Part shown: piece by piece, positions 30,119 to 32,353 of the stretch
How the letters are laid out: each line of letters starts with the position of its first letter
Position numbering within the stretch: the stretch's first letter is position 1
NCBI GenBank assembly: GCA_024510845.1
Contig: JANEMA010000007.1
Location: 514 to 64,513 of the forward strand
Length of the DNA stretch: 64,000 nt
Direction of reading: 5' to 3'
Source: Gammaproteobacteria bacterium
Lineage (GTDB): Bacteria > Pseudomonadota > Gammaproteobacteria > Chromatiales > Chromatiaceae
Notes under the pieces: generated by a model
Seen by the model: only the letters and a program-made list of their open reading frames with translations
Told to the model about the DNA's origin: nothing
Databases searched by the model: none
Position numbers and translations under genes: made by a program

Positions 30119-30682
30119 TCAGGGCGCTTCGCTCATGGCTGCCCAACCGTAGCGCCAATCGCTTCCTGTGGCCTCGCGCAGTACCGAGAGCAGCCGGTCG
30201 CTGGGTGTGGCCTCACCGGGGAACACGTTGCGCAACTCCACCAGCAGTCGCCCGATCGCGGTCTGTTTCCGCCAATCGAGATCGATAGCCCGGCAGGTCA
30301 CCTCGCAGGCAGGGCATGGTTGTGCCGAGAGAGGCGCAGTAGCGCGCACGCGCCAGTCATCGAGGCGGGTACGACAACTCGGGCAACGTGGCCAGCCAGT
30401 CCGGGAACCGGTGAAAAGACGGGGGGCCGGCAGTGGACCGTGCAGGACGAGGTGGCAGAAGTCGCGATCATCGGTGTGTGTGGGTTCGAAGCGCAAGTGT
30501 GGCGAGCAGCCAGCGAAGATCACCTCGCGCACAAAGCCATCGCCGGCATGAAATACCCTCTTGTCCAGCGCCTCGGTCAGTGGTTTTCCGGCGATTTGCA
30601 GTGCCTCGATAACGCCAAGCACCGGGGCCAAGTCGGGCGCATCCTCGGGAAGGACGGGAAACAGGTACAGGCTACCGTTCAT
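30119..30682 (-). CDS. Hypothetical protein with two CxxC pairs
   Basis: FAGCSPHL; CPSC; CPAC; VFPGEATPS. Confidence 0.75.
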   Translation of the reverse strand: MNGSLYLFPVLPEDAPDLAPVLGVIEALQIAGKPLTEALDKRVFHAGDGFVREVIFAGCSPHLRFEPTHTDDRDFCHLVLHGPLPAPRLFTGSRTGWPRCPSCRTRLDDWRVRATAPLSAQPCPACEVTCRAIDLDWRKQTAIGRLLVELRNVFPGEATPSDRLLSVLREATGSDWRYGWAAMSEAP

Positions 30683-30716
30683 GTGCACATTCTACTGCAG
30701 GTAGAATGTGCACATG
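30680..30716. promoter_or_regulatory. Perfect 16-bp inverted repeat carrying both divergent start codons
   Basis: CATGTGCACATTCTAC-tgcag-GTAGAATGTGCACATG. Confidence 0.8.
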
Positions 30717-30953
30717 AAATGCTTTCTCATCGCGCTGGTGCGCATCTACCAGCTGTTGATCAGCCCGATACTGGGCAACAACTGCCGTTACTACCCGAGT
30801 TGCTCGGCCTACACCATCGAGGCAATGGAAAAATGGGGATCATTGCATGGCCTGTGGCTGGGCATCCGCCGTGTCGCGCGTTGCCACCCGTGGCGCGAAG
30901 GTGGAGTGGATCCGGTACCCGAACCGCCGGAGAAGGCACATCGCCATGATTGA
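30714..30953 (+). CDS. yidD: Membrane protein insertion efficiency factor
   Basis: [29 protein letters not shown]. Confidence 0.93.
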
Positions 30954-31486: not shown

Positions 31487-32353
31487 TCAGAGCAGGCGTT
31501 CGAGCGCAGCAATGCGGTCCCCGACAGGTGGATGGCTGGCGAACAGTTCGCGTACCCTGCCGCCCGCGATACCGAAGGCAGCCATCTCGTCGGGCAGAGG
31601 CGCAGTATGCGCCTGTTGCAGGCGGCGTAGTGCCGAGATCATCTTGAACTTGCCGGCCAATCGCGCAGCGCCGGCATCGGCGCGGTATTCGCGCCAGCGC
31701 GAGAACCACATCACTATCATCGAAGCGAGGATGCCCAGCACCACCTGGGCCACCATAGAGGTGATGAAGAAGCCGATACCATGACCGCGTTCGTTCTTGA
31801 GGATCACCCGATCGACGACATGGCCAACCACTCGTGATAGAAACACGACGAAGGTGTTGACCACACCCTGGATCAGGGTGAGGGTAACCATGTCACCATT
31901 GGTCACGTGGCTGATCTCGTGTGCCAGCACCGCCTCGATCTCGTCGCGGTTCATGGTCTCGAGCAGGCCGGTGGAGACGGCTACCAGAGCATCGTCCTTG
32001 TTCCAGCCGGTGGCGAAGGCGTTCGGCAGTCCTTCGAAGACACCAACCTCTGGCATGCCGATGCCCACCCTCTGAGCCTGCCGGGCAACGGTATCCACCA
32101 GCCAATGCTCGACCTCGTTGACAGGCTGCTCGATGATCTGCACACCCATGCCCTGCTTGGCCATAAACTTGGACATGAACAGAGAGATCAGCGAACCCGA
32201 AAAACCGATGATGGCCGAGTAGATCAGCAGGGCGTTGAGATCGAGATCGACCCGGTTGGCGACCAGAAGGTCATTGATGCCGAGCAGGCGGAACACCAGA
32301 CTGATGACCACCAACACGGCCACGTTGGTCACAAGAAACAGAAGCACACGCAC
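31487..32353 (-). CDS. htpX: Heat-shock zinc protease HtpX
   Basis: PNAFATG; AVLAHEISH; NGDMVT; FSRWREYRADAGAA; SHPP. Confidence 0.96.
   Translation of the reverse strand: MRVLLFLVTNVAVLVVISLVFRLLGINDLLVANRVDLDLNALLIYSAIIGFSGSLISLFMSKFMAKQGMGVQIIEQPVNEVEHWLVDTVARQAQRVGIGMPEVGVFEGLPNAFATGWNKDDALVAVSTGLLETMNRDEIEAVLAHEISHVTNGDMVTLTLIQGVVNTFVVFLSRVVGHVVDRVILKNERGHGIGFFITSMVAQVVLGILASMIVMWFSRWREYRADAGAARLAGKFKMISALRRLQQAHTAPLPDEMAAFGIAGGRVRELFASHPPVGDRIAALERLL

Follow-up and report, generated by a model that had tools for sequence, protein, structure and literature searches.

Leaderless expression in Gammaproteobacteria is classically exemplified by lambda cI, transcribed from PRM, and by tetR of Tn1721. 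In bacteria at large, a Pribnow box located 6–8 nt before the start codon constitutes the signature of leaderless genes (GeneMarkS-2 preprint, 10.1101/193490), and the corresponding promoters are well documented in Mycobacterium, Corynebacterium, Streptomyces, and Deinococcus (10.1101/193490, group C; D. deserti, PMC4007540). Among Proteobacteria, leaderless genes have been reported to be rare (10.1101/193490). Two other described phenomena are relevant to closely spaced divergent genes that share symmetrical DNA. Bidirectional promoters, as characterized by Warman, Forrest, Wade, and Grainger, display divergent start sites 7–25 bp apart, with a mode of 18, and −10 elements that overlap on opposite strands (10.1101/2020.01.31.928960), while non-overlapping cases are classified by the same authors as ‘separate promoters that are divergent’ (PMC12825309). 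Quasi-palindrome template switching, on the other hand, is a well-established class of mutation (Lovett laboratory, PMC7202029; yeast, PMC3820800).

Here we analysed a 31-bp intergenic gap between two divergent genes, yidD and a gene encoding a 187-aa zinc-ribbon protein, within a 64,000-nt stretch of DNA (hereafter “the window”) from a gammaproteobacterium of the Chromatiaceae. Like documented leaderless promoters, both upstream regions combine a TANNNT hexamer at −12 to −7, an AUG start codon, no Shine-Dalgarno sequence, and a weak or absent −35 element, and the genome as a whole displays a peak of hexamer-to-start spacing at 6–7 nt. Unlike the usual leaderless systems, the locus comes from a gammaproteobacterium with the signature in only ~2% of its genes, and both genes of a divergent pair appear to be of the leaderless type within 31 bp. 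No explicit precedent for a divergent pair with both genes leaderless was found in the literature checked, although one may still exist. With the bidirectional promoters of Warman et al., the locus shares pseudo-symmetrical DNA, predicted divergent transcription, and the expectation that one polymerase orientation excludes the other. Unlike in these promoters, the predicted start sites lie 32 bp apart, i.e., outside of the 7–25 bp range, and the two hexamers do not overlap and are physically separate in relatives. Judged by this predicted geometry, the locus falls outside the class of bidirectional promoters described by Warman et al.

Our favored reading, to which we assign a probability of about 0.7, is that the 31-bp gap consists of two back-to-back, −10-only promoters of the sigma70 type that would produce leaderless mRNAs, and that its symmetry is a by-product. 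If so, the locus would provide a clean case, backed by comparison with relatives, of leaderless expression among Gammaproteobacteria, where this mode is considered rare. It would also illustrate how tightly a pair of promoters can be packed, the entire divergent control region amounting to 31 bp and neither mRNA having an untranslated leader. Such a locus may offer a natural setting in which to examine how RNA polymerases compete at close, non-overlapping −10 elements, in a geometry that extends beyond the published definition of bidirectional promoters. Current understanding is not overturned by it.

The inverted repeat and its promoter-like elements

The sequence at positions 30680–30716 reads CATGTGCACATTCTAC-TGCAG-GTAGAATGTGCACATG, and complementarity extends 2 nt past this interval at both ends. 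A repeat finder delineated two arms of 18 nt each (30678–30695 and 30701–30718) that are 100% complementary, so that the whole palindrome spans 41 bp (30678–30718) around a 5-nt centre, TGCAG. An earlier note on this DNA had described a perfect inverted repeat with a 5-nt centre; the repeat is real, and was slightly understated in being given arms of 16 nt. Both arms read TAGAAT-GTGCAC-ATG-AA, and because GTGCAC is itself palindromic, ATGTGCACAT also forms a direct repeat, with copies 25 bp apart according to the repeat finder. Folded as single-stranded DNA, the hairpin reaches −20.1 kcal/mol, vs −4.4 ± 1.6 for shuffled sequences (z = −9.9). Across the whole 1.87-Mb genome, only 23 perfect inverted repeats were found with arms of at least 13 nt and a loop of at most 10 nt, among which this palindrome ranks third-longest; the inverted repeat exceeds chance expectation. 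The longest perfect palindrome with a short loop in this genome is located outside of the window (contig C24:80147–80196), with 21-nt arms (CCCTCTCCCAGAGGGAGAGGG...) and no resemblance to a terminator.

The earlier note had also raised the possibility that the symmetry is an assembly artefact. Seven records assembled independently of one another (three from Logan, one from NCBI, one from JGI, and two from ENA) carry the same 90 bases at this locus. They represent strains that are near-identical overall, and their agreement rules out an artefact.

The two start codons lie inside the repeat. yidD, encoding a membrane protein insertion efficiency factor of 79 aa (30714–30953, + strand; PF01809, E = 1.4e-29; TIGR00278, E = 4.6e-23, with the profile aligned from residue 4), begins at the ATG at 30714–30716. 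The zinc-ribbon gene, which encodes a conserved protein with a CxxC...CxxC arrangement (30119–30682, − strand), begins at the ATG at 30680–30682. A raw list of open reading frames (ORFs) also offered GTG starts 6 nt before each ATG (30708 and 30688). These were rejected because relatives conserve the ATGs as well as the N-termini of the proteins, the 181–191-aa homologues of the zinc-ribbon protein sharing the N-terminus MNGSLYL, while the GTGs are specific to this species.

The hexamer TAGAAT lies 6 nt before the ATG in both arms without a Shine-Dalgarno sequence, a point made in the earlier note that can be read directly from the DNA. On the yidD side, the predicted −10 hexamer occupies 30702–30707 (+ strand), i.e., −12 to −7 relative to the A of the ATG, and is preceded by G at both −14 and −13. 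On the side of the zinc-ribbon gene, the predicted hexamer is found at 30689–30694 (− strand; ATTCTA on the + strand), leaving 7 bp between the two hexamers. The putative discriminators, or spacers, both GTGCAC, are located at 30708–30713 (+ strand) and 30683–30688 (− strand), respectively. Reading the sequence revealed no GGAG, GAGG, or AGGA within 12 nt of either ATG, and a 6-nt spacer is too short to hold a Shine-Dalgarno sequence. Neither promoter displays a recognizable −35 element: the best candidate is TTCATG, which matches 3 of 6 positions with an 18-bp spacer, and a scan for consensus sigma70 promoters called none, since TTCATG and TAGAAT together reach 8 of 12 matches where 9 are needed.

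Under the two-promoter reading, the sigma70 holoenzyme would recognize TAGAAT on each strand and initiate seven bases past the hexamer, on the A of the ATG, which corresponds to predicted start sites at 30714 (+) and 30682 (−). Ribosomes would then begin at the 5′-terminal AUG, with no Shine-Dalgarno pairing, a step suggested by the sequence and by comparison with relatives. The upstream contacts of each polymerase would be expected to cover the start site of the other promoter. Given 7 bp between hexamers and 32 bp between start sites, and considering the usual polymerase footprint, the two promoters are probably not occupied simultaneously. The importance of this competition would vary with the strength of the promoters, as has been shown for the bidirectional promoters of E. 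coli (PMC12825309).

Upstream units in relatives and across genomes

We compared orthologous regions from nine genomes of the genus Sedimenticola, one metagenomic contig with 79% identity, and three more distant metagenomic contigs, anchoring upstream sequences on the start codons, which provided 13 yidD loci and 14 zinc-ribbon gene loci. A −10-like hexamer was found at a set distance from the yidD ATG in all 13 loci, with a 6-nt spacer in 12 of them and a 7-nt spacer in L008. This hexamer is GGTAGAAT in ten loci and TCTAAT or GAAAAT in the other three, and G at −14 is invariant among the 12 yidD loci scored. A full TGTG extended −10 is present in exactly the three loci with TCTAAT or GAAAAT (L039, L041, and L043), and its coincidence with the weaker hexamers looks like compensatory promoter evolution. 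Upstream of the zinc-ribbon gene, 11 of 14 loci carry TAGAAT or TAAAAT at a distance of N6/7 from an ATG, and the remaining three (L005, L006, and L013) display no hexamer and instead carry AGGA 7–9 nt upstream of a GTG start. The start codon therefore covaries with the upstream element, with ATG in 11/11 hexamer-type and GTG in 3/3 Shine-Dalgarno-type loci, as would be expected if the hexamer form is read from a 5′-terminal AUG. These three loci also represent an apparent natural transition from leaderless to leadered expression, or the reverse, inside one genus.

Information content across these alignments peaks at −12 to −7 and at the start codon, and for yidD also at −14/−13, with little information in the 6-nt spacers and at all positions further upstream. 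Spacers on the yidD side include GCGTGC, GCGCGC, GTGCGT, and others in relatives, and those on the zinc-ribbon side, read on that gene's strand, include GCGCTG, GTGTCG, and GCGCCG. In the clade closest to this genome the gap itself measures 31 bp, and in other lineages it measures 47, 48, 49, 49, 71, 81, 82, and 110 bp; the hexamer-N6/7-ATG unit of each gene recurs in lineages of differing gap length. Comparison thus points to two separable units, and for this reason the locus is not one symmetric element. The earlier note had proposed a single symmetric element launching leaderless transcripts for both genes, and its two halves fared differently. Divergent leaderless promoters are supported by the conservation of hexamers and ATGs, the ATG/GTG covariation, and an ATG-specific peak in the genome (see below), whereas the single-element part is not supported, as the relatives' promoters can be 47–110 bp apart and symmetry is confined to the hexamers. 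Conservation of the two arms is likewise partial: hexamers and ATGs are kept in relatives, and spacers are not.

The conserved hexamer-N6-ATG unit corresponds to the published leaderless-gene signature (10.1101/193490), and we found the same signature elsewhere in this genome. We counted 27 instances of TANAAT-N6-ATG and 17 of TANAAT-N7-ATG, vs ~6.5 at each other spacing between 0 and 15, i.e., a 3–4-fold enrichment, and no peak at N6/7 was observed in this genome when ATG was replaced by GTG, TTG, CTG, ACG, or AAG. An ORF of at least 60 aa is opened by 18 of the 27 N6 matches and 11 of the 17 N7 matches. With the looser TANNNT motif, counted only at early ATGs of ORFs whose GC3 is coding-like, there are ~30 genes in excess, or ~2%. 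This ATG-specific peak indicates, on sequence grounds, that a small leaderless class is present in the genome and that both genes of the pair belong to it. No −35 signal was detected in the 29 genome-wide candidates; the promoters of this class thus look like −10-only promoters, which the missing −35 fits without providing independent support. For gene callers and annotators working on this genus, TANAAT-N6/7-ATG would mark the true starts of ~30 genes. The hexamer of leaderless-type genes is most often TACAAT, and one additional class member lies within the window at ~26251 (− strand; C66:26764), where TACAAT-ATCACC-ATG opens a 115-aa ORF.

The compact back-to-back arrangement recurs sporadically in other genomes. 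The pattern CAT-N6-ATTNTA-N0-20-TANAAT-N6-ATG was matched in 18 of 401 gammaproteobacterial genomes, vs 8 for a reversed control pattern. Four unrelated divergent pairs (L048, L057, L062, and L063) display the same layout of hexamer-N6-ATG units with long ORFs on both sides and gaps of 25–39 bp, while at a further locus (L046/L052) one of the two flanking ORFs is short (~50 aa).

The comparative data also bear on the possibility that both mRNAs are leadered, starting inside the opposite gene, with an 18-bp hairpin that sequesters the start codon and TAGAAT acting as an A/U-rich translation element. The very stable fold of the repeat would suit such a role, as would a terminator-type scan that flags the stem on the + strand and the lack of a −35 element both at the locus and across the class. 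However, stems are much weaker in relatives (−8.6 to −15.3 kcal/mol), and no local stem exists where the arms are 47–110 bp apart, even though hexamer-N6-ATG is retained there. In addition, the conserved T−12, A−11, and T−7, together with G−14 or a TG extension, correspond to a −10 element and not to a ribosome-binding site, only ATG gives the genome-wide peak, and no co-oriented upstream gene would need termination. We thus regard leadered transcripts with a sequestering hairpin as unlikely.

Alternative roles and origin of the symmetry

A dimeric-regulator site, as suggested in the earlier note, would make the palindrome or the two ATGTGCACAT copies an operator placed over the promoters and controlling both genes. 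The perfect dyad symmetry is what such a site would present, and ATGTGCACAT occurs at seven places in the genome vs ~1 expected from base composition. The half-sites are not conserved, however: every relative differs in the spacer bases that make up ATGTGCACAT, including those that are 80% identical and have a 31-bp gap. The five other genomic copies of ATGTGCACAT are solitary and unpaired, none of them in a promoter-like or common context, and a genome-wide search for a regulon with ATGTGCACAT, TGTGCACA, and a 15-mer returned nothing coherent. GTGCAC is neither avoided nor enriched (581 observed vs 647 expected), which argues against an operator role and also led us to reject a restriction-site meaning for this hexamer. 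Control of both genes through such an operator therefore seems very improbable.

Compared with relatives, the feature particular to this genome is the extension of the symmetry into the spacers. The four nearest relatives also have a 31-bp gap and share the frame CAT-N6-ATTCTAC-TGCGG-GTAGAAT-N6-ATG-AA, so that the layout is already present among them as a quasi-palindrome, as would be expected from packing two like promoters and their ATG-AA starts back to back. In these relatives, the arms match at all constrained positions and at only 3–4 of 6 spacer positions, vs 6 of 6 in this genome, and GTGCAC is found on both sides in this species only. By hand count, its spacers differ from those of the 31-bp-gap relatives at 5–6 of 12 positions. 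Third codon positions of both genes differ by 24–28% against the same relatives, i.e., the spacers diverge about twice as fast, which suggests that the spacer sequence is nearly unconstrained.

Promoter function does not explain why the two spacers should in addition be identical and self-complementary. One possibility is that perfect symmetry was itself selected, either through a supercoiling-driven cruciform or through exactly matched promoter kinetics, producing a supercoiling-sensitive or strictly balanced switch. The 41-bp palindrome would then fuse the two leaderless promoters into one device, with each start codon placed in the −35 region of the opposite promoter, strict polymerase competition, and shut-off by a cruciform. 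If this were the case, the palindrome would represent a minimal and protein-free switch controlling a membrane-insertion factor together with its conserved partner in a reduced symbiont genome, and cruciform extrusion under rising negative supercoiling would shut both genes together. The rank of the repeat in the genome and the spacers, which are unlike those of every relative yet match each other fully, could be taken as signs of selection, and the region is invariant in the seven assemblies, although these strains are near-identical overall. Against this, the perfect form is restricted to one species and relatives function with imperfect arms, and the rate of spacer divergence suggests little constraint. 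Moreover, at 41 bp and with G+C in its centre, the palindrome is expected to form a cruciform poorly in vivo. We consider both selection for perfect symmetry and the fused device highly improbable.

The perfect palindrome is instead probably a mutational by-product of the two-promoter layout. Identical spacers may have arisen from chance point changes or from a template switch copying one arm onto the other, and a quasi-palindrome template switch could account for the clustered spacer changes in a single step. All spacers alternate purines and pyrimidines, so that a chance match, although still unlikely, is more probable than 1 in 4096. As in quasi-palindrome template switching, the repeat exists in imperfect form at this site in relatives, and the putative changes in this species form a cluster confined to mismatched positions and render the arms perfectly complementary. 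Unlike in pure template switching, at least two ordinary substitutions would also be needed here; chance convergence is possible, and the relatives compared are at most ~80% identical. The species-specific perfection of the symmetry is a plausible footprint of template-switch mutation on promoter DNA. The earlier note had invoked a template-switch inversion that gave one gene the promoter of the other: such an event is possible for the spacers but does not account for the origin of the promoters, because both occur separately in distant relatives.

An intrinsic terminator was rejected, since in the stem flagged on the + strand only 7 of 19 pairs are G–C, the tail is ATGCTTTCTC, and both genes point away. 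Rfam covariance models gave no match at the palindrome, and a single chance-level miRNA match elsewhere.

The two genes and their genomic setting

The genome comprises 72 contigs with 61% G+C. Among named organisms, its closest relatives are Sedimenticola sp. metagenome-assembled genomes and ‘Chromatiaceae bacterium CTD079’. yidD is single-copy in this genome, with neither rnpA nor yidC adjoining. It stands alone beside htpX (31487–32353, − strand), outside of the usual rnpA-yidD-yidC context.

The 187-aa protein has no match in Pfam or NCBIfam. An AlphaFold2 model was obtained with a pLDDT of 93.6 and a pTM of 0.89, and a Foldseek comparison of this model to the PDB returned no fold match (best E = 0.14, TM 0.24). 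The family is well conserved and without annotation, and includes at least 80 homologues of ~124–220 aa, mostly 181–191 aa. The zinc-ribbon gene usually adjoins yidD, and because of this the 187-aa protein may be a functional partner of yidD. Invariant residues across the family include C59, C100, C103, C123, C126, W110, D136-W137-R138, and F154-P155-G156-E157.
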